IMG/VR virus record: IMGVR_UViG_3300021399_000097
Length of the DNA: 64,000 nt
Reading direction: 5' to 3' (one strand)
Source of the DNA: a virus
Lineage: Duplodnaviria > Heunggongvirae > Uroviricota > Caudoviricetes
The notes under the pieces are model-generated. The model had not been told where the DNA came from, did no database searches, and was given only the letters and a program-made list of their open reading frames with translations. Within the stretch, counting starts at the first letter, position 1, and every line of letters begins with the position of its first letter. The position numbers and the translations under genes were made by a program. Shown one piece after another: positions 4,380-63,546 of the stretch.

Positions 4380-5618
4380 ATGCCAAAAGAGAAGAAAACA
4401 CGCTATTGTCAAAAATGTAATAGAACTAAAGATGAAAGTAATTTTTATGGGTCAAATAATTTAGAAAAATATCCAGAAGGTAAATTAAATCTTTGTAAAG
4501 AATGTTTGACAATGCATGTTGATAATTGGAATCCAGATACTTATTTATGGATTTTAGAAGAATGCGATGTCCCATACGTCGCAGAAGAATGGAACAAATT
4601 ATTGGCTTCTTATGCAAAAGATAAAACTAGTGTTACTGGTATGACTATTATAGGTCGTTATCTTTCCAAGATGAAACTCAAATAGTTTAAAGATTATAGA
4701 TGGAAAGATAGTGGATTCTTACAAGAAGTCGCCAATAATAAAATGGAAAATGCTATGAAAGCACAAGGATATGATGCGCAAGAGATAGCAGAAGCTATCG
4801 CAAAAGCAACTATTCCATTGCCGGAATAGCCTGTTCCAGATGATGAAAATTATTTAGACAATCATGGTTATAAAACAGAAGTCCCTAATTATTTTGATTA
4901 GTTAAATGGTATTAAAGAAGAGGACACAACATTTGATGATTCTCTCACCGATGAAGATAAATTGTATCTTCGTATGAAATGGGGCAAGACCTACCGACCA
5001 GAAGAATGGGTTTAGTTAGAAAAACTTTATACTGATATGGTAGAGTCTTATGATATACAATCTGCGGGACATATTGATACATTAAAAATGGTTTGTAAGA
5101 CTTCTTTAAAAGCAAATCAATTATTAGATATGGGTGATGTTGAAGGCGCCCAAAAGATGGTAAAAATGTATGATATGTTGATGAAATCTGGTAAGTTTAC
5201 AGCAGCACAAAATAAAGCAGAAAAAGGTGAATTTGTTGATTCATTTTCTGAACTGTTTGCAATTTGTGAAAAAGATGGTTTTGTGCCGCGATACTATACC
5301 GATGGTCCGCAAGATAAAGTTGATAGAACTATTTAGGATTTATAGAAATACACACGTTCATTAGTTACTGAAGAAATGAATCTTGGTAATTTGATTGAGC
5401 AAGCAGTTAAACAGATACAAGCGGATAAAGAGAAAGAAGCAATGCGCGACGCAGAAGCAGCTGATGATGATGAAGCATTTGAGGCTGAACTTTTTGATGA
5501 AGATTAGAAATACCTTGAAGATGAAGACTTCTTACAATTGCGGCAGATGGTTGAAGAAGACGCTGCAGATGATGAAGATTTTCTTAATTCTTTAATAGAT
5601 GATGAAGATTTAGTATAA
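4380..5618 (+). CDS. 412-aa protein with N-terminal Zn finger and acidic C-terminus; terminase small subunit candidate by position only
   Basis: YCQKC...CKEC; continuous frame through TAGs to a TAA that overlaps the terminase ATG (TAATG). Confidence 0.7.
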
Positions 5619-7375
5619 TGGCATTACAAGATTTATTAGATTTATCTACTACTAAAAAGAAAAAGATAGGTATTTCAGAAGAACGTTTAGAACCATTGAA
5701 ACCTATATTACGTCAATATCTTGCCTATTGGAGAGAATATCCTGATATGTTTATTGATTTTTTACAAGGTGGAGAAAAGGGAGTTATCCCTGACAGTGGT
5801 TTAAAGTTTTACTTTTATCAAAGAGTATTTTTAAGAACTGCTATGCGCTATAAGTATGTCTACATGGTTTTCCCTCGTGCATATTCAAAATCTTTCTTAT
5901 CTGTTTTAGTGTTAATGTGCCGATGTATTTTATATCCTAGAGCAAAATTATTTGTTACTTCTGGTGGTAAAGAGCAAGCCGCTGGCATTATAAAAGAAAA
6001 AGTTGAAGAACTTTGCACTTTAGTGCCAGCTCTTGATAAAGAATTAGACCATCGGCCAGGACGAACGCGAATAAGTAAAGACTACTGTATTTTTATGTTT
6101 AAAAATGGGTCTTACTTTGATAATATTGCGGCTACTGAAAAATCAAGAGGTAAACGTCGTCATGGCGGACTTGTTGAAGAGTGTGTTGGTGTTGATGGTA
6201 AAATACTTTCAGAAGTTATTATTCCTACAATGAACGTTTCACGACTATGTATGGATGGAACTATGTAGCCAGATGAAACATTAAATAAATCATAGATTTT
6301 TGTTACTACTGCTGGATGGAAAGGTAGTTTCGCTTATGACAAATTGATTTAGCTATTGGTTTGGATGATCACTGAACCAGAAAAAGCTTTCGTCATGGGA
6401 GGCACCTGGCGCATCCCAGTGTTAGTAAAATTACTTGATAGAACTTTCTTACAAGACCTTCAACGAGATGGTACTTATAATGAAGCATCATTTGATAGAG
6501 AATATGAAAGTAAATGGTCTGGTACTGCAGAAAATGCTTTCTTCAATGGAGAAGTATTTGATAGGCATCGTGTGTTAAAACAACCAGAGTATGAGTTTTC
6601 TGGACGGTCATCCTCACAAACTTATTACGTTATTTCTGTTGACGTAGGTAGAAAAGGTTGCGATTCAGTAGCATGTGCTTGGAAGGTCACACCATAGTCT
6701 GCGGGACCTGCTATTAAATCATTAGTTAATATGTATACTATTTCTGATGCTCATTTTGAAGATTAGGCAATTAAACTAAAACGTCTTTATTATAAATATA
6801 AAGCACGTAGAATGGTTATTGATGGTAATGGTTTAGGTATTGGTTTAATTGACTATATGGTTAAACCATAGAATGATACAGAGACTGGAGAACATTTTCC
6901 AGATTTTGGCGTTTATGGTGGAACTCAAGAGGATGCTGCTGAAGAATATAAAAAGTTCCGCACCAATGAAACAGAAGAAGGAGCTATTTATATCTTTAAA
7001 GCAAATGCGCCCATCAATTCAGAAGCACATGCGAATGCTCAAACTCAAATGAATGCGGGAAAAGTAAAATTACTTATTGACGAACGTATCGCTAAAGTAA
7101 AACTATTAGATACAGTTGCAGGTAAAAAAATGTCCCCAGAAAAAAGGGCAGAGTATTTAAAACCATTTACCTTAACTTCTATTTTAAAAGAGGAAATGGG
7201 AAATCTTCGTGAAGAAAATGAAGGAATTAACATTATCTTAAAATAGGCGAATAAAGGTATTAAGAAAGATAAGTTTTCTGCTTTTGAATATGGATTATAT
7301 TATATAAAATTAGAAGAAGAAAGTAAGAAGAAGAAGAGAAAGTTTAAAGTTACAGATATGCTATTTATGAGTTAA
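5618..7375 (+). CDS. terL: Terminase large subunit, 585 aa
   Basis: Walker A-like FPRAYSKS, Walker B-like GLVEEC, SQIFVTTAG (Q=TAG), nuclease motifs ISVDVGR, IDGNGLG, KDKFSA. Confidence 0.93.
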
Positions 7376-7388
7376 GGGAGATGAAAAA

Positions 7389-7745
7389 ATGCGCGCAAGC
7401 AGAGGCGAAATAAAAATTGAAGAAATCTTAATTGATGCGGATTTAAATTTTGAAGAAGAATATATTTTCCCTGGACTTCGTAGTAGTAATGGGAAACCTT
7501 TGCGGTTTGATTTTGCTGTTTTTGATGACGATGGCCATATTGATTTTTTAATTGAATATCAAGGAAAATAGCATTATGAACCAAGTGCCAAATTTGGTGG
7601 AAAACGAGGGTTTTACCAATAGCAATATAATGATAATAAGAAAAGACGTTTTTGCGCTTTATAGGGGATTAAATTAATTGAAATCCCCTATACTGAAGAA
7701 AATCTAATTTCTTATGATTATATTATGAAAAAAGCTGGATATTAA
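7389..7745 (+). CDS. PD-(D/E)XK/Vsr-like endonuclease, 118 aa
   Basis: LRFDFAV...IEYQGKQHY (second Q=TAG)...LIEIPY. Confidence 0.85.
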
Positions 7746-7757
7746 GGAGGTGGAGTT

Positions 7758-9395
7758 TTGGATAAACTCAATACAGAAAATACCAAACAAGACACCATCC
7801 ATGCAAAAGGTTTTGATTTGTTTAATTTCAATTATGCAAATCCAGATAATGTACCAGCTGATGTAGTTGATTACAGTAAGATTCGTGTAGGCGTAAAACA
7901 ATTAGAAGATGCAGTTTTAGAGTTAGGAACTTTAAGACAAGCAAGACTTCCTTTTTGTAATAAAAGAGATATAATGCGAGCTATTGTTGAACGTGATTAT
8001 AGACGTTTAAGATAGATTTCTGATTTCTTTTATGCGGCCAGCGGTATTTATCAAACAGTATGCAACTATTTCGCATATTTATATCGGTATGACTGGTATA
8101 TTTATCCAGAAAATGTAAAAGATTCTGCAAAACCTGAAAAAGTTATTGAAGAATATACAAAGATGTTAAGTTATTTGGATAGCTCTTATATCAAAAAATT
8201 ATGCGGTGACATAGCATTAAAGATTGTTAAATATGGATGCTATTATGGTTATATTATTGATTCTACAAAAAGTATTTAGATTCAAGAATTACCTGCTGAA
8301 TATTGCCGTACTAGATATTCTGTTGCGGGAAGTCCTGCGATTGAATTTAATATGGCCTTTTTTGATGAAAAGTTTGTTGATGTTACTTATCGCATGAAAG
8401 TAATTAAAATGTTCCCAGAAGAGTTTGCTAAAGGATATGCTTTGTATAGGCAAGGGAGGCTTGCGCCAGATGAAGAGTTTGCTAGTATAAATTCTGAATA
8501 TAGACGCAGTTATGGTTGGTATTTATTAGACCCAGGTTGCACAGTAAAATTTAATTTAAATGGTAGTGATTTACCTATTTTTATTAATGCGCTTCCTGCG
8601 ATTCTTGACCTTGATGCAGCTCAAGAATTAGATAGAAAAAAGCAAATGTAGAAGTTGTTAAAGATTTTAGTTCAAAAATTACCAATGGATAAAAATGGTG
8701 ATTTAATTTTTGACGTAGATGAAGCAAGAGATATTCATAATACAGCAGTTGCAATGTTAAGACGTGCTGTTGGAGTTGATGTTATTACTACTTTTGCTGA
8801 TGTTGAAGCAATTGATATTAGTGATAAAAATACAACTACATCAACTGATGATTTAGAAAAAGTTGAACGTACAGTTTATAACTCTCTTGGTGTTTCACGT
8901 AATTTATTTAATACTGATGGTAATTTATCATTAGAGAAGTCTATTTTAGATGATGAGTCTACAATGAGAAATCTATTATTACAATATGAAATCTTTTTTA
9001 ATCGTATCGTTGATAAAAAGAGTGTTAATAAAAAGTTTAATTTTAGATTTTCAATGTTAGAAACTACACAATATAATTATAAAGATTTATCTAAAACTTA
9101 TAAAGAATTAACAGCTAATGGACAATCAAAGTTCTTACCAATGATATCATTGGGTCATTCACAAAGTTCTATTGTTAATTTAGCTTACTTTGAGAATGAA
9201 ATCCTTGACTTACCAACTCTTATGGTTCCTCCTCTGATGAGTTCAACGATGAGTGGAGCTGATTTGTTGGACATAAAAAGTCAAAAAAATACAACGAAAA
9301 GTCAAACTACATCAGAAGGCCAGTCTGGTCGTCCTGAAAAGCCTGATGATTAGAAATCTGAAAAAACAATTTAGAATAGAGAATCTATGAGTTGA
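7758..9395 (+). CDS. Portal protein, 545 aa
   Basis: Lies between terminase and protease; size fits; single frame through TAGs; C-terminal GRPEKPDD tail. Confidence 0.8.
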
Positions 9396-56816: not shown

Positions 56817-56852
56817 AAAGGGTTAGACTTTTTATAAGTCTAACCCTTTTTT
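56817..56852. terminator. Terminator between convergent transcription units, possibly bidirectional
   Basis: AAAGGGTTAGACTT / AAGTCTAACCCTTT stem with a T-run on + and an A-run on the other side. Confidence 0.85.
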
Positions 56853-56949: not shown

Positions 56950-58209
56950 TCAACCATTTTCTATGCTTTTATCACGCAAACAGATATTTAAAATAATTCC
57001 CACGATTAAGGCAAGTGCTGTTGCTGAGAAACTAATTGTTGTACCGCCGACTACAAGACCACTAATACCAAGAGAAAGAACAGAAGATACAATAATTAAG
57101 TTCTTTTGGATATTTAAATCAGTTTTTTGCAGCATCTTTATTCCACTACAAGCGATGAAACCGTATAATATGATAGCGGCACCTGCGAATACACAACTTG
57201 GAATTGATGCGATAAAAGCTTGAACCGGAGCGAGAAATCCTAAGAGGATAAGGATAATTGCGGCACCTACGGTGACAAAGGTTGAAGCTACTTTGCTAAA
57301 TCCTACACAGGCTACCCCTTCTCCATAGGAACATTCACCAAGTCCGCCGAATACTGAACCTACTAAGTTGGCAAACCCTTCTCCAATAAAGATTCTTCCT
57401 AAGCCAGGATTTCTGTATAAGTCTACACCAATAATTCCTCCTAAAGCAGCATGGTCAGATAAACATTCCATCATTGCAGAAATTGTGTATGCTATGTACA
57501 TAATTATAACTGGAAGAATTGTAGAGAGCTGCACAGAAGTCCAATGTAGAAATGCGAAGTCTGGGACGATAAATAATTTTAAATCCTTAAAAACGGAAAA
57601 ATCAACTATTTCATATACCCCACTAACTGTAAGGATAATAGCAACTACATATCCAACTAAAGTTCCAAGTAAGAATGGGAGAATCTTTAGCATCCCTTTA
57701 GCATAGTGGCTAATAAGCGCAATTGCAAGCATAGTAATCAGCGCAACTATAATGCCCCATTGACTAGTTACTCCTGCAATCTGCACATAACTAAGAATAA
57801 ATGGCATTAAATTAACACCAATAACTACAGTTACAGCGCCAATGAGCGCAGGTGGGAAAACTTTGTATATCTTATCTACTGGAATGCGGGTAAAAATAAT
57901 TCCAAATAAACTATAAATTACACAAGTCACAAGTCCACCAATAGCAACTGCAGTATAACCGCCTAAAGCCAAAGCAGCCATTACTGGCGCAACAAATGCT
58001 CCGCTGTTTGAGATAAACATAGGAGACTTAAAACCAGTAATTAAAAGATAACAAATGGTGGAAAGTCCTGCACCAACCAGTGCTCCACTAACCGCGACGC
58101 CGCAGATATTTGCAATTAAAACTGTTGCTACGAAAACAGATAACATCAACTATACTGAAAATGAAACTAATTTACCAAAAGGCAATCTGTCATTTATATT
58201 ATAAATCAT
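56950..58209 (-). CDS. NCS2/NAT family nucleobase permease (UraA/PyrP-like), 419 aa
   Basis: Highly hydrophobic with many predicted TM segments; TM1 SVQLML (Q=TAG); MECLSDH, SYGEG..SKVAS signature region, GGA..LYGFIA-like segment. Confidence 0.9.
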
Positions 58210-58216
58210 TTTTATT

Positions 58217-58420
58217 TTAACTCCTTGATTTAATAATTTCATTTAAATTATCTCTAATAGAAATTATTTCTTCTATTGGAACATCTAATAATATATCTAT
58301 ACCATAAGGTAGAACTAGAACAACATCTTCTTCATTAAGGACTTTACGTAATTGTGTAGCTATTTTATATGTTGTATCTATATCTATCTTATTAGTATCA
58401 ACTTTTAAAATATTAATCAT
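58217..58420 (-). CDS. 67-aa hypothetical protein
   Basis: ORF track; tight overlap with its neighbours. Confidence 0.6.
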   Translation of the reverse strand: MINILKVDTNKIDIDTTYKIATQLRKVLNEEDVVLVLPYGIDILLDVPIEEIISIRDNLNEIIKSRS

Positions 58421-58934
58421 TATCGTAAGTATCGTAGACTTTTCTTAATACTTTGATAACTTCATCAATATCACTTACTAATACGCCTGCTTGTTTGATT
58501 AAGCCAGTGACATAGAGATTCTGATAAGAGTATTGCTGCTCGCCGAGACTTGCGGCACCTCCTCTATCTTTTGCATCGCTATGAGTATTAAAGCACTGAC
58601 GAGTATCAGTACAAACACCAATAATATACTTATTGTCTCCCCTTGCTATTTTTTCGTGGAATTTTCCCACTTCAGCGCACGTGCCAGAAGGAAGAACATC
58701 CCCATCAATACAAGCGATAAGCACATCAGTATTGTCTAACCGAATGTTATCACCATTAGCAATCTCCTATGAACCGGCAAACTTCTTCTTTCCTTCTACA
58801 CCATTTATATCAGTATTTTCTACTGGGCTATAAACATAAGCATCAGGAAATGCTTGCCTAATTTTATTTGCCCATTCAATATTTCTTAAATAATCACCAT
58901 AAAAGAAAATTGGGCCAGCTAAATATATTTTCAT
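58413..58934 (-). CDS. Nucleoside 2-deoxyribosyltransferase / N-glycosidase family protein, 173 aa
   Basis: MKIYLAGPIF, YSP, DVLIACIDG..SGTCAEVG motifs; one TAG read through. Confidence 0.85.
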
Positions 58935-59773
58935 TCTTGTTCTATCTCCTCTATCTCATCTTCATAATATTCTTCATCAAGGTCATCTTCTAAATCTAAA
59001 TCTTCTACATCTTCTAATTCATCACTAAGAATAAAACTTGCATAACAACCACAATATGTATGAAAAGGAGGCCAAGCAGGAACTTCATTTACTGGGAACT
59101 CTCCACAATATGATTCACAATTACTTCGGCATTCTCCTCCACCAAAACATATCTCTACCCATTCACAAAAACCAGATAATTTATCTTTTTGCACTGTAGT
59201 TTGTTGGTAAAGACATTCTGTATATAAGATTTTATCTAACCAATCAATTGCTTGTAATTTATCGGTATAAAAATCAAAGTTTAATTTATCTGGGGTAGGA
59301 TTATCATTTGGATTATCTAAATCTTGATGCAATGTAAAAGGACAAAACCAACGCCGTAACCTTTCAATCATTGTCATTCCATCTTCTTCATAGAATGTAA
59401 TATTACTAATTGGATATTTACGACGTCCATATCGTTTAGTAATAGTTACTGCTGTTAATTTATATACATCTTCTAACATTTCAATAAAGTCTTCCATTAA
59501 TGTATCTTCTAATGTTTGATATAATTTTATAATTTCTTTAGTATTTATTGAAATGTTAGATTTATTACGTCTTTTCTATTCTTTTAAATAATCTAATAAA
59601 TTATATTCTTCATCATTAATTATGATAGTAATTTTTTTTAATTGATTATAATATTTTACTAACAATGTTGAAGAAGAGTTTAAATATTTTTTATGTATAT
59701 CATCAACATCATCCTATAATTTTTTACTATATCTTTTATATTTATTTCTAATAGCAGGAGTAGGTAATGTCAT
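58931..59773 (-). CDS. 280-aa protein with a MuF/SPP1 gp7-like C-terminal Cys/His motif and acidic tail
   Basis: Extended through 2 TAGs to the ATG at 59773; C..C....PPFHTYCGC resembles PPFHPNCRC. Confidence 0.6.
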
Positions 59774-60138
59774 TATACTTCCTCTTCCTCACTATTTACT
59801 ACTGGCTCAACATCTGGAGTAGTAGTATCATTATTCTCCTTCTCTGGGTCAATCAAAAAGAAAATCTTTTTATCCATACGCTGCGCCCAGTCAATTTCAC
59901 CGAATGTGCTTTCACCAATATAACCATCTTGATTGATTACAAAGATAGCATCACTCATATTGATTTTCTGTTTATGTAAATTGTCTAATCTAATTTTATC
60001 TTCAGTAGTTAATTCATCACCATCTGCATGATGAAAAATACCAGGAGCAAGAACAATATGTCCCTACATTGTTAAAGTTTTGTTTGCCATTTCAAATTCA
60101 TTTTTAAATCTTGTACTGCCACATAATGTAATAATCAT
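59773..60138 (-). CDS. 121-aa NDT-like (flavodoxin-like fold) hypothetical protein
   Basis: MIITLCGSTRFK..GHIVLAP..KINMSDAIFVIN..GYIGESTFGEI; one TAG. Confidence 0.7.
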
Positions 60139-60620
60139 TTATTATTCTCCTTTAACACTATAACACGTTGATTTTTAGAACCTCTCATTGGTAAAGTGAT
60201 ATCTCTTTGTTCTAAAATAAAAGGCCCATCAACTAAAACATTTATATTCTTTAATATATTCTACAATAATTTTTCCTATTTGTCAATTAACTGCTCATAT
60301 TTATATCCTGTCCATAAATAAATCTTAATATCAGGATAATGTTTTTTAACTTCTGTAATTACTAAATTAGTTAAAAATAAATTATTCTCATGTAATGGCT
60401 CTCCACCCATAATGCAGAAGTTACGTTGAACACCATTAGCAGATAAAGCATTTATTATATTATCTAATGTCTCTTGAGTAAACTCATAACCACCATTAAA
60501 ATCCCAAGTTTGTTGATTATGACAACCGGGGCAATGGAGGTCACATCCTTGTAAAAAGAATGTGACGCATACTCCTTCACCAGCAGAGATATCATTACGA
60601 ATAATACCTGCGTATCTCAT
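60135..60620 (-). CDS. nrdG: Anaerobic ribonucleotide reductase activating protein (radical SAM), 161 aa
   Basis: GCDLHCPGCHN; MGGEP; C-terminal VDGPF..RGSKNQRVI lies after two TAGs. Confidence 0.92.
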
Positions 60621-60636
60621 ATATATCCCTCCTGTC

Positions 60637-62886
60637 TTATTTCTCTAAATCCCCAGTATGTTTTACACGATGATGTACCTCATCTTGTTTTCCTAAATTA
60701 AATGCTGATGTATAGTCACCAGTTAAATAACCAGTTACTCTACGTAATTGCTGGATATGGGTGCTGCCGCAAATAGGACATTTGCCATTAAACTCACCAG
60801 TAAAACCGCAATCCAAGCAAGTATCATTAGGAACATTAACAGCAAAATATGGAATATCATGGTCCATAGCATAGTTAACAATTTGTTCCAAAGCAGTTAA
60901 ATTATTACGAACAGAACTTTCTAATTCAACATAAGTAATGCATCCAGCATTGCTATATCCCGTTAATTGACTCTCAATATCAATTTTATCAAAAGGAGAA
61001 AGTTTCTTCCATACAGGTACATGCATGCTATTTGTAAAGAATTCTTTATCACTCACATTTTTAATAACTCCATATTTATCTCTAAACTTCTTTAATGCTG
61101 TATAACAAAGGTTTTCAGCAGGCGTATAATAAACACCAAAATTTAAATGTTCTTCTTGTTTAAATTGAGCGCATCTATCTTTGAATAACTACTCAATTCT
61201 CTTTGCAAGTTCCATACCTTTTTCAGTTGTATGGTCGCAGCCAATCAAAATCTGTAATGCTTCTGCCAAACCTAATTGCCCAATAACAAGAGTACCATGC
61301 TTGAGCGCACTATATATTCCTTCTTCTGGAATATACCCACTCATTGTATTATTTTCATACATAAATTTTGCGCTGGCAGGAGATTGAGAACAAATCCAAT
61401 CAAATCTTTCAAGAAGCATATCTCTTGCTTCATAGATTTTTTTATCCAAAAGCTCCATGAAAGCATTAATAATACTTTCTTTTCCATTAGCATATTCATC
61501 ATCGTCTATATTCTATACAGCTTCCATGGCAAGTGTAGGAAGAATAATGGTTACAGGACATATATTACCACGGCCATCTTTACGCTGAGGATTGACTCCT
61601 GGATTTGCATTAATGTCTGCACCGTTGACCGTTCTACAACCCATGGTTGAAAAATAAGTGCAAGGGTCATTTCTATCATATCCCGCATTTCCAGACCAAT
61701 CTACATTAGCATAATTTGGATATAACCTTTTAGCAGTGCTTTGTAATGCTAATTGATATAAATCATAGTTGGGTGTACCAGGTTTATTATTTACACCTTT
61801 CATATACTGGAAAATCCCACATGGGAAAATACTAGTTTTATGGATTTTACCAAGTCCTTCAATGCTTACATCCAAGAGTGCTTGAGTAAACATTCTTCCT
61901 TCTGGAAGAGTACAAGTACCATAATTTAAAGATGTAAAAGGTAACTGGTTACCAGAACGACTTTGTAAAGTATTAAGGTTATGATAAAGACCTTCTACTG
62001 CCTAATGAGTTTCTTTTTCTGTCATATCCATAGCATAATCATAGGCTCTAGGGCAATTTAAATCTTTATAAAAATCACCGTCAATAGATATATTTTTACT
62101 ATCTACATCACTTGAAAGACTGTCAATTATTTTATTTTCAATATAGTGGACTCCATCTTTAAAGTGTTTATAAAAACTTTTACGGATATAGGGAACCATT
62201 GTCCAATCTATATGAGTCGCACTTACTCCACCAAATTGCTGCAAAGATTGAAGTTGGAAAATAACAGCAGTTAATTGGCATGCGGTATTCACAGAACCGG
62301 CCGGCCGCACATCTGTCTATCTGGTATTGAATCCATTAGCAAGTAATTCATCAAAAGGAATACTCAAACAGTTATGAGAACCAACGTAATACGCATCTAA
62401 ATCATGAATATAGATTTCATTATTTTCATGATTTGCTCTTGCCATTGGAGATACTAAATGTTCCAATGCTAATTTTTTAGTCATTACGCTACTGGCTTCA
62501 CCTGTGCGCCCGCCAAATGAATGCTCATCAACATTAGCATTTTGATTTTGAACATCATCTGCTTCTAATTTTTCAATAATTGTATCAATAAAGTCACTCT
62601 AAAAATCTCTTGCAACTTCTTTTCTATATCTATATCTAATATAAGCTCTTGCTACATCTGGACGCTCAGAGCGCATTAGATATTGTTCTACCCAATCCTA
62701 TATCGTTTCTACCGTTACTGCCACAGGACTGTTATCAACTTTATGACTAATCTCTAAAGCTATATCAGTTGCGGTATCATTTTCAAATACTTCTCCATCA
62801 ACTTCTTTAAATGCTTTATTTATTGCACTTATAATCTTATTACAATCAAATGGAACCGCTGTTCCATCTCGTTTAATAATTGTCAT
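60637..62886 (-). CDS. nrdD: Class III (anaerobic) ribonucleoside-triphosphate reductase, 749 aa
   Basis: ATP-cone N-terminus (IIKRDG), MGCRT active-site segment, CLDC..CPIC Zn site, glycyl-radical motif RRVTGYL; five fragments in one frame. Confidence 0.95.
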
Positions 62887-62952: not shown

Positions 62953-63546
62953 TTATTTTTTTAATGAGATTTGCCCTGACTCCCATGCGGCCGCAATCTA
63001 TTTAGCAATATTATGTATATCTACACCATCGCCATTGGCTACATATAAGTCAGGTTGAATATAATCTATTACCTCATCATTAAAATCTGTTTCGTCAGTT
63101 CCAAATCGTCTAACTATTTCATGACAATCTGGATTACCTTCTCTATTCAGCTGCCTTAATAATCTTGTTTTATCATCTGCTTGTATATAAATTACAAATA
63201 AATTTATATGTATATTATCACGAAGTATTTCTACTCCTTCTGGATTAAATACTCCAATATTTAAATGATTCTATGAAAGATTAGTTAAAGATGTTCCATA
63301 ACACCAGTTATTAAAAACTGTTGCTTCTAACATATCTCCATTAAGAACCTAATCAGTAAATTGTTCTTTTGTAAGATAATGGTAGTCTACTCCATCAACC
63401 TCTCCTTCTCTAATAGGACGAGTCGTACAACTAATAATAGGTCGCGCAATATTAGTAAAAGTCAATTCTTGAAGTAAAGCTTTTAATAGAGTATCTTTTC
63501 CAGAACCAGCTTTTCCCATTATCGCAATAATATTATAATCATTCAT
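62953..63546 (-). CDS. gmk: Guanylate kinase-like nucleotide monophosphate kinase, 197 aa
   Basis: P-loop GKAGSGKD; TTRPIREGEVDGVDYHY; 3 TAGs read through. Confidence 0.85.

Follow-up and report, generated by a model that had tools for sequence, protein, structure and literature searches.

In the virus record IMGVR_UViG_3300021399_000097, a 64,000-nucleotide stretch of tailed-phage DNA (hereafter the window), the gene for an NCS2/NAT-family permease (56950..58209, minus strand; 419 aa; PF00860, 175.5 bits against a cut-off of 27, E 1.9e-51) lies downstream of a gene for an enzyme of the nucleoside 2-deoxyribosyltransferase (NDT) family (58413..58934, minus strand; 173 aa; PF05014, 46.4 bits against a cut-off of 28.8, E 5e-12; phrog_1817, E 1.2e-21), each containing one in-frame TAG that is read as Gln. 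This pairing is conserved in related phages, both genes are under purifying selection, and both proteins carry derived residues. On balance, and by a narrow preference, we interpret the pair as a nucleobase-capture module, in which an imported base would be trapped by NDT-family glycosyl transfer for phage DNA synthesis. Phages are known carriers of genes for nucleotide metabolism, but to our knowledge no importer devoted to nucleobases and tied to a base-swapping enzyme has been described in them, and no published description of a phage permease-NDT pairing was found in the open full-text literature. The conserved pairing, the replacement of upp by NDT and the correlated residue changes appear new, the parts themselves being members of known families.

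A scan of IMG/VR yields 37 loci with a permease 63-84% identical to that of the window, on contigs of up to 240 kb. In about 30 of these the immediate neighbour of the permease is an NDT gene, in two gene orders and differing neighbourhoods: the NDT lies either upstream of the permease, as in the window and together with gmk-nrdD-nrdG-DUF4406, or downstream of it in another neighbourhood. Distant phage permeases (35-48% identity; L041, L043, L044, L052, L054 and L038) are paired with NDT too, some of them on contigs in which TGA encodes Trp, and the 50%-identity representatives come from phage-like contigs, where the permease in most cases adjoins or overlaps a PF05014 gene. Among the latter, NDT, methyltransferase and permease genes stand in a row on a contig with TGA as Trp (P0133, 48%), the NDT and permease genes overlap in P0135 (43%) and P0139 (36%), and in P0132 (47%) the NDT lies 1.4 kb upstream of the permease with a GIY-YIG gene between them. 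The original prediction, made from the window sequence alone, had proposed looking for permease-NDT co-occurrence in relatives, and the answer from both the closer and the distant loci is strongly positive. As the pairing recurs on dozens of independent contigs, with a ratio of non-synonymous to synonymous substitution rates (dN/dS) of about 0.1, the arrangement is not due to chance; the individual values, obtained with dS near saturation, are 0.08-0.11 for the permease and 0.05-0.07 for the NDT.

The NDT-permease module spans two distinct stop-codon reassignments. In L041, L042, L052 and L054, where the same NDT-permease pair is present, the permease can be read only with TGA as Trp (2-6 in-frame TGA codons); L052 additionally encodes an ATP-dependent ligase, gyrB and gyrA. 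In two distant phage lineages (L038-L040, 5181-6011; L045, 250-1104) the start of the permease overlaps a gene for a GIY-YIG/NUMOD homing endonuclease, which in L038 parts the NDT region from the permease.

Cellular relatives of the permease, collected by searching a profile built from 4 sequences against genome contigs, are linked to a different enzyme. None of the 76 relatives (32-39% identity), mostly metagenome-assembled genomes of Clostridia (Oscillospiraceae, Acutalibacteraceae, Christensenellaceae and Lachnospiraceae), has an NDT near the permease, and in 27 of them upp lies directly downstream. The combination of permease and upp is the classic pair of uracil permease and uracil phosphoribosyltransferase. 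In a maximum-likelihood tree, a branch with 100% SH-aLRT support parts 50 phage rows (42 NDT-linked, the remainder mostly truncated contigs) from 80 rows on the other side, 26 of them upp-linked and none NDT-linked. The phage permease has the same family and length as the UraA/PyrP-type uracil:H+ symporters (E. coli UraA, PDB 3QE7 and 5XLS), and its nearest cellular kin are the upp-linked Clostridia uracil permeases; unlike these and UraA, it has an NDT partner, is phage-encoded, contains TAG as a sense codon and has no upp nearby.

Translation of the permease starts at the ATG at 58209-58207, 11 nt after AAGGAG (58226-58221). An earlier reading with a start at 58242 (430 aa) is replaced on the basis of this ribosome-binding site and of the length of database gene calls, which equals 419 aa and spans 97% of the 430-aa reading. 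The protein covers positions 2-384 of 389 in the PF00860 profile and aligns with UraA residues 7-406; the HMMER alignment to UraA places a 7-residue gap in transmembrane helix (TM) 8, and the ungapped register from a multiple alignment with closer relatives was adopted. With 211.4 bits the permease falls below the cut-off of 477 for the uracil permease equivalog NF007995, and it is also under the RutG and PbuX cut-offs.

Uracil in UraA is held by Glu241, Glu290 and the backbone NH groups of Phe73 and Gly289, and by Ser72 through water, and His245 is implicated in proton coupling (PMC5539350). Glu241, Glu290, Gly289 and Ser72 are kept in the phage permease as E259, E308, G307 and S80, and the substrate-binding carboxylates E259 (TM8) and E308 (TM10) are invariant across an 11-sequence alignment. 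The Ser-Phe of UraA TM3 (S72, F73) corresponds to S80-G81 in the window permease; every NDT-linked permease has Gly at the Phe73 position, and this change is not present in L047, a phage permease without NDT. The position of UraA Asn291 is Gly in the window permease and its nearest NDT-linked relatives. NDT-linked permeases read Q[LMQF] in TM1, S[NSA][SCA]G in TM3, E[CHI]x[SA]D[HI] in TM8 and [YF][GS]E[GSA] in TM10, the upp-linked bacterial permeases reading QQ, LGSSFAF, EHxADH and YGES, respectively. The NAT signature motif of TM10, [Q/E/P]-N-x-G-x-x-x-x-T-[R/K/G], is degenerate in the window permease (E-G-V-A-C-V-G-F-S-K), with its N, G and T all replaced. Since two bulky pocket residues have become Gly, F73->G and N291->G suggest a pocket for a larger or different base. 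These are the informative changes in the permease, rather than the one in TM1: the original prediction correctly noted QL in place of the usual QH and took it as a hint of altered specificity, but QL against QH is a weak marker, and the nearest bacterial clade reads QQ.

The nearest solved relative of the NDT is EfPDT, a type I purine 2'-deoxyribosyltransferase from Enterococcus faecalis (PDB 7M5H; E 1.5e-16, VIA Z 19.9, 31% identity), in which the catalytic set comprises Tyr5, Asp60, Asp80, Glu86, Asn130 and Tyr132 (PMC12372993). Five of these six residues are kept in the phage enzyme, as Y4, D62, E88, N139 and Y141, and N139-L-Y141 aligns with EfPDT Asn130 and Tyr132 (NLM/NLY motif, with the Asn from the neighbouring subunit), the unusual N-L-Y motif being common to the two enzymes. 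A Lys-rich insertion, NGVEGKKK, is found in the window-clade NDTs and not in EfPDT. The sixth residue, EfPDT Asp80 (equivalent to LlNDT D92 and CtNDT D82), is Pro82 in the phage NDT. In CtNDT, D82 contacts the sugar 5'-OH (PMC10913048); with this Asp replaced, the term 'canonical NDT' used in the original prediction was too strong. The position, which lies six residues before the nucleophile Glu (E-6), is Pro or Gly in every permease-linked NDT aligned; two NDTs without an NCS2 partner, those of Bacillus phage PBC2 and Lactococcus phage phiL47, retain the Asp. Superfamily members acting on 5'-phosphates carry no acidic residue at E-6, DNPH1 and MilB having a 5'-phosphate-binding Ser there (DNPH1 S98, MilB S97; PMC10603095). 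The window NDT, with Pro at E-6 and Ser at E-5, matches DNPH1 and MilB structurally with Z 13-14.

An NDT-family phage enzyme that likewise has no acidic 5'-OH-binding residue is DmtZ of the Z-genome phages (Gordonia phage Ghobes), in which uncharged small residues occupy the position of the Asp and which moves deoxyribose 5-phosphate from a deoxynucleoside monophosphate (dNMP) to a free base (PMC12884076). DmtZ is encoded near a dUTPase-family gene, and in relatives of the window phage the NDT likewise lies about 3 kb from a dUTPase. The two enzymes differ in that the window NDT has no sequence similarity to DmtZ detected by tblastn and keeps the Asn ligand; DmtZ is not reported with a permease, and no bona fide PurZ is encoded in the window.

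For the nucleobase-capture module, we infer that the permease, as an NCS2 proton symporter of the Clostridia uracil-permease lineage in the host membrane, imports a free nucleobase and that transport is coupled to transfer: the partner NDT would move a 2-deoxyribosyl group from host-derived deoxynucleosides, the putative sugar donors, onto the imported base and so trap it. The donors may alternatively be dNMPs, in which case 2-deoxyribosyl-5-phosphate would be moved and a nucleoside kinase would not be needed; this is conceivable because the NDT has lost the Asp holding the sugar 5'-OH. Together with NrdD/NrdG, Gmk, dUTPase and a second NDT-fold protein, the pair may raise and rebalance the supply of deoxynucleoside triphosphates (dNTPs) in a phage of 165-240 kb and 33% GC, living in an anaerobic habitat assumed to be rich in free bases. 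The phage would in effect swap upp, the partner of the bacterial permease, for an NDT.

All five near-complete relatives (96-100% complete, 165-240 kb, two with terminal repeats) carry the NDT with a dUTPase about 3 kb away; TK, dNK, ThyA, ThyX, Tmk, PRTase and TGT were not found in these five genomes. With no nucleoside kinase in the relatives, a nucleoside-level NDT product would depend on host kinases, and a dNMP-level product would not. A tentative and rather unlikely version of the mechanism follows this second, kinase-independent route, in which an NDT of the phosphodeoxyribosyltransferase type may join the imported base directly to the deoxyribose 5-phosphate of host dNMPs, and F73G and N291G would have adapted the pocket of the permease to that base. 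If this is true, the host dNMP mix would be converted to the AT-rich mix of the phage, or a non-canonical base would be brought in.

Several observations weigh against nucleobase capture as set out here. In 6 of the 37 loci there is no adjacent NDT; among these, the contigs of L011 and L034 end at the permease, and L001 and L005 carry other genes there. The loci were gathered by similarity to the query, so that the split between phage and cellular rows in the tree looks cleaner than it is, and several of its branches are long. By its descent the permease would be expected to carry a pyrimidine, whereas the nearest characterised NDT is purine-specific, and NCS2 carriers could in principle serve the release of a base instead of its uptake. 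As to the sugar donor, we go no further than suggesting the use of dNMPs, because the second 5'-OH ligand is kept (Asn139) and E-6 holds a Pro where DNPH1 and MilB have Ser.

The same proteins could instead serve to install a non-canonical base (2,6-diaminopurine or a 5-substituted pyrimidine) into DNA through an NDT acting as DmtZ does, an explanation that we regard as unlikely. The enlarged binding pocket (F73->G, N291->G) would suit such a base, and the missing 5'-OH Asp is missing in DmtZ as well (PMC12884076). A statistical association links PF05014 to dZ phages (10.1101/2025.10.22.683976), a methyltransferase gene lies between NDT and permease in L041, and L052 has a weak DUF1599 match beside the NDT. 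Three of the five near-complete relatives also encode a very divergent, PurA-like protein of the adenylosuccinate-synthetase family (PF00709, 385-389 aa; G002, L133 3409-4575; G005, L134 3864-5021; G004, L135 3880-5034), and a PF00709 match lies about 10 kb from the permease on the L005 contig. In the Z pathway, the phage gmk could act as dZMP kinase. However, the PurA-like protein reaches 53 bits against the PurA cut-off of 402 and 20.6 bits against the PurZ (NF038379) cut-off of 300, it is absent from the other two relatives, and no PurA or PurZ homologue is present in the window. Its nearest kin in cultured phages are PurA-like genes of Vibrio, Rhizobium and cluster C mycobacteriophages, not those of known Z phages, and a scan confined to the neighbours of its gene gives AAA_33 kinases and Metallophos_2 esterases and no DatZ- or MazG-like match. 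Tblastn searches with the NDT and the second NDT-fold protein lead to Firmicutes, Caulobacter, Nostoc and uncultured phages, and not to the DmtZ-bearing Gordonia and Arthrobacter phages; neither a ThyA-family hydroxymethylase nor TGT/DpdA was found in the relatives. The original prediction had offered either a salvage route from external base to dNTP or a route for installing or removing a non-canonical base. There is good support for a functional connection between the transport of bases and the transfer of deoxyribosyl groups, but none for the non-canonical-base role, given the absence of a ThyA-like hydroxymethylase and of TGT/DpdA from the relatives and a PurA-like gene that is not PurZ.

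Particular base-modification routes were considered separately. A Z-genome (diaminopurine) route is not supported, as the PurA-like gene is not PurZ by score, kin or neighbours and the window has none; a hydroxymethyl-pyrimidine route is without support, as no ThyA-family gene was found in the near-complete relatives. A 7-deazaguanine route is rejected, as the downstream radical-SAM genes are SPASM peptide maturases and TGT/DpdA was found in none of the five relatives. These radical-SAM/SPASM maturase-like genes (PapB-like, E 1e-44 to 1e-46), which closely follow the permease in L002 (13956-15200) and L005 (11892-13980), hint at a phage-encoded modified peptide.

Another explanation, improbable in our judgement, dispenses with coupling: the permease would be a uracil or pyrimidine importer that feeds the host Upp, and the NDT would independently convert deoxynucleosides into one another, the two being neighbours through the clustering of nucleotide genes. 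The ancestry of the permease does lie among upp-linked uracil permeases, both Glu residues that bind the substrate are still present, NDTs adjoin nrd genes in phages without an NCS2 permease (e.g. PBC2), and the failure to find a phage PRTase makes the host Upp the obvious sink. Against this, the adjacency outlasts reshuffled gene order, changed neighbourhoods and two recodings, and the derived residues in both partners are found only in the paired forms. In addition, the NDT (63-79% identity) is better conserved than the permease (35-45%) in the distant pairs L041, L043, L044 and L054.

Pool editing, in which one or both NDT-fold proteins would hydrolyse particular host dNMPs in the manner of DNPH1 and the permease would remove or recycle the base, is very unlikely. 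It would fit the absence of Asp at E-6 in both NDT-fold proteins (Pro82 and Gly75) and the structural closeness of DNPH1 and MilB, which match the NDT with Z 13-14 and are among the top matches of the second protein, and DmtZ hydrolyses dAMP as well (PMC12884076). However, the phosphate-binding Ser of DNPH1 and MilB is not present at E-6 (PMC10603095), and the closest matches of the NDT are transferases (EfPDT, Z 19.9). NCS2 proteins are, moreover, known as uptake symporters, and the waste of dNMPs seems costly with so large a genome.

The permease is a genuine phage gene. The TAG at 58152-58150 encodes the TM1 Gln, which is invariant in the 11-sequence alignment and is encoded among relatives by CAA/CAG in 33 cases and by TAG in 4; an in-frame TAG at an invariant Gln rules out host contamination and independently supports the reading of TAG as Gln. 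Although NCS2 matches in GenBank 'phage' records are mostly host DNA or prophage flanks, an artefact of contamination or mis-assembly can be dismissed here in view of this codon, the overlapping or abutting genes of the unit with their shared terminator, the matching synteny on 96-100% complete phage genomes (two with terminal repeats) and an identity of at most 39% to any cellular homologue found. The in-frame TAG, the ribosome-binding site and the conserved synteny on near-complete phage genomes agree with the view of the original prediction that the permease is adapted to this phage. The statement that transporters of this class are uncommon in phages holds for cultured GenBank phages and fails for metagenomic ones, in which they form a large family; the protein databases contain more than 120 clusters (90% identity clustering) at least 82% identical to the window permease.

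The window phage is a large tailed phage from a gut or rumen habitat, with terminase, portal, structural proteins and a sigma factor encoded in the window, a GC content of 33% and near-complete relatives of 165-240 kb. Under translation table 11 its genes break up, and reading TAG as Gln restores them: nrdD, which contains 6 TAG codons, becomes continuous over 749 aa, and another frame, with 104 TAG codons, extends to 3632 aa. The minus-strand run comprises, in the order of transcription, gmk, nrdD, nrdG, a 121-aa gene, a 280-aa gene, the NDT, a 67-aa open reading frame (ORF) and the NCS2 permease. It begins with the guanylate kinase gene gmk (62953..63546; 197 aa, 3 TAG; PF00625, E 3e-22; phrog_1815, E 3e-34), which window-like relatives also keep upstream of nrdD. 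The anaerobic ribonucleoside-triphosphate reductase gene nrdD follows (60637..62886; PF13597, E 9e-144; ATP-cone and Gly_radical domains), and then nrdG for its radical-SAM activase (60135..60620; 161 aa, 2 TAG; PF13353, E 3e-40; phrog_626, E 1.8e-47). The genes of the unit abut or overlap and have a terminator in common, a bidirectional intrinsic-terminator-like hairpin with a 14-bp stem (56817..56849) that closes both this unit and a convergent plus-strand gene. The permease, the NDT and a second NDT-like protein, placed on the minus strand after gmk-nrdD-nrdG in the original prediction, are all located there once TAG is read as Gln, but the run described as permease plus two NDT-fold genes was incomplete, as the 280-aa and 67-aa ORFs intervene.

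In several relatives nrdD is interrupted or trailed by extra ORFs of 143-230 aa (L008, L013, L015, L016, L036 and L037; region ~4600-8640 in each of these loci), and the tblastn match falls in two parts. The nrdD of Thomasclavelia phage TR-TP1 (70% identical) has an HNH endonuclease annotated inside it. Together these features hint at a mobile element, either an intron or an intein, that carries a homing endonuclease.

The second NDT-fold protein (59773..60138, minus strand; 121 aa, 1 TAG) is DUF4406-like by the profile matches of its homologues and NDT-like by its predicted fold. It has no significant Pfam match of its own (PF14359, DUF4406, 15.1 bits against a cut-off of 22); of the 10 homologues compared, all from related phages, 8 score as DUF4406, the best with E 7e-07. 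Its AlphaFold model (pLDDT 78.6) retrieves CtNDT, BcmB, TbNDT, MilB, BlsM and DNPH1 with Foldseek (probability 1.0, TM-score about 0.5-0.66), so that calling it NDT-like was right at the level of fold. An invariant G75-x-S-T78-x-x-E81 motif places Gly75 at E-6, and dN/dS is 0.18-0.29. The (d)NMP N-glycosidases DNPH1, MilB and BcmB and the DUF4406 family have fold and nucleophile Glu in common with the phage NDT-fold proteins; the E-6 Ser of DNPH1 and MilB is in neither of the two, and in the 121-aa protein the sequence register indicates that the catalytic Tyr of NDTs is absent, with Thr4 probably in its place.

The 280-aa protein (58931..59773, minus strand; 2 TAG), encoded between the two NDT-fold genes, is rich in Cys along one segment and strongly acidic in its C-terminal tail. 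It matches no PHROG or NCBIfam family, and none in Pfam above threshold. Its slot is variable, a 32% identical relative being found only in L006, and other relatives having a 203-aa ORF or nothing there. The 67-aa ORF between NDT and permease (58217..58420, minus strand) has no family match in Pfam, PHROG or NCBIfam, contains the ribosome-binding site of the permease within its 3' end, and has homologous small ORFs only in the subclade of the window, L001, L002, L004 and L005.

A comparable arrangement occurs in Lactococcus phage phiL47 (949 group; L132 3992-8339), in which genes for an NDT, a Pnu-family transporter, nrdD and nrdG lie in a row. The NDT overlaps the importer gene beside the anaerobic ribonucleotide reductase genes, so that a cultured Firmicutes phage follows the same principle, but the transporter belongs to an unrelated family (PF04973, E 7e-19, not PF00860). 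Its Pnu relatives (PnuN) are predicted deoxynucleoside transporters (PMC7749635), and because the phiL47 NDT keeps the E-6 Asp, its route is probably at the nucleoside level. This transporter-plus-NDT block seems never to have been studied.

The permease-NDT pairing is widespread among abundant, uncultured, stop-codon-recoded phages of the animal gut, and in it the partner that traps the base has clearly been exchanged during evolution, an NDT having taken the place of upp; specific residue changes in both proteins accompany the exchange. If the NDT acts on dNMPs, it would be a second natural phosphodeoxyribosyltransferase after DmtZ, an enzyme type of interest for making nucleoside and nucleotide analogues, and would provide phages with a new means of rebalancing or rewriting the nucleotide pool.

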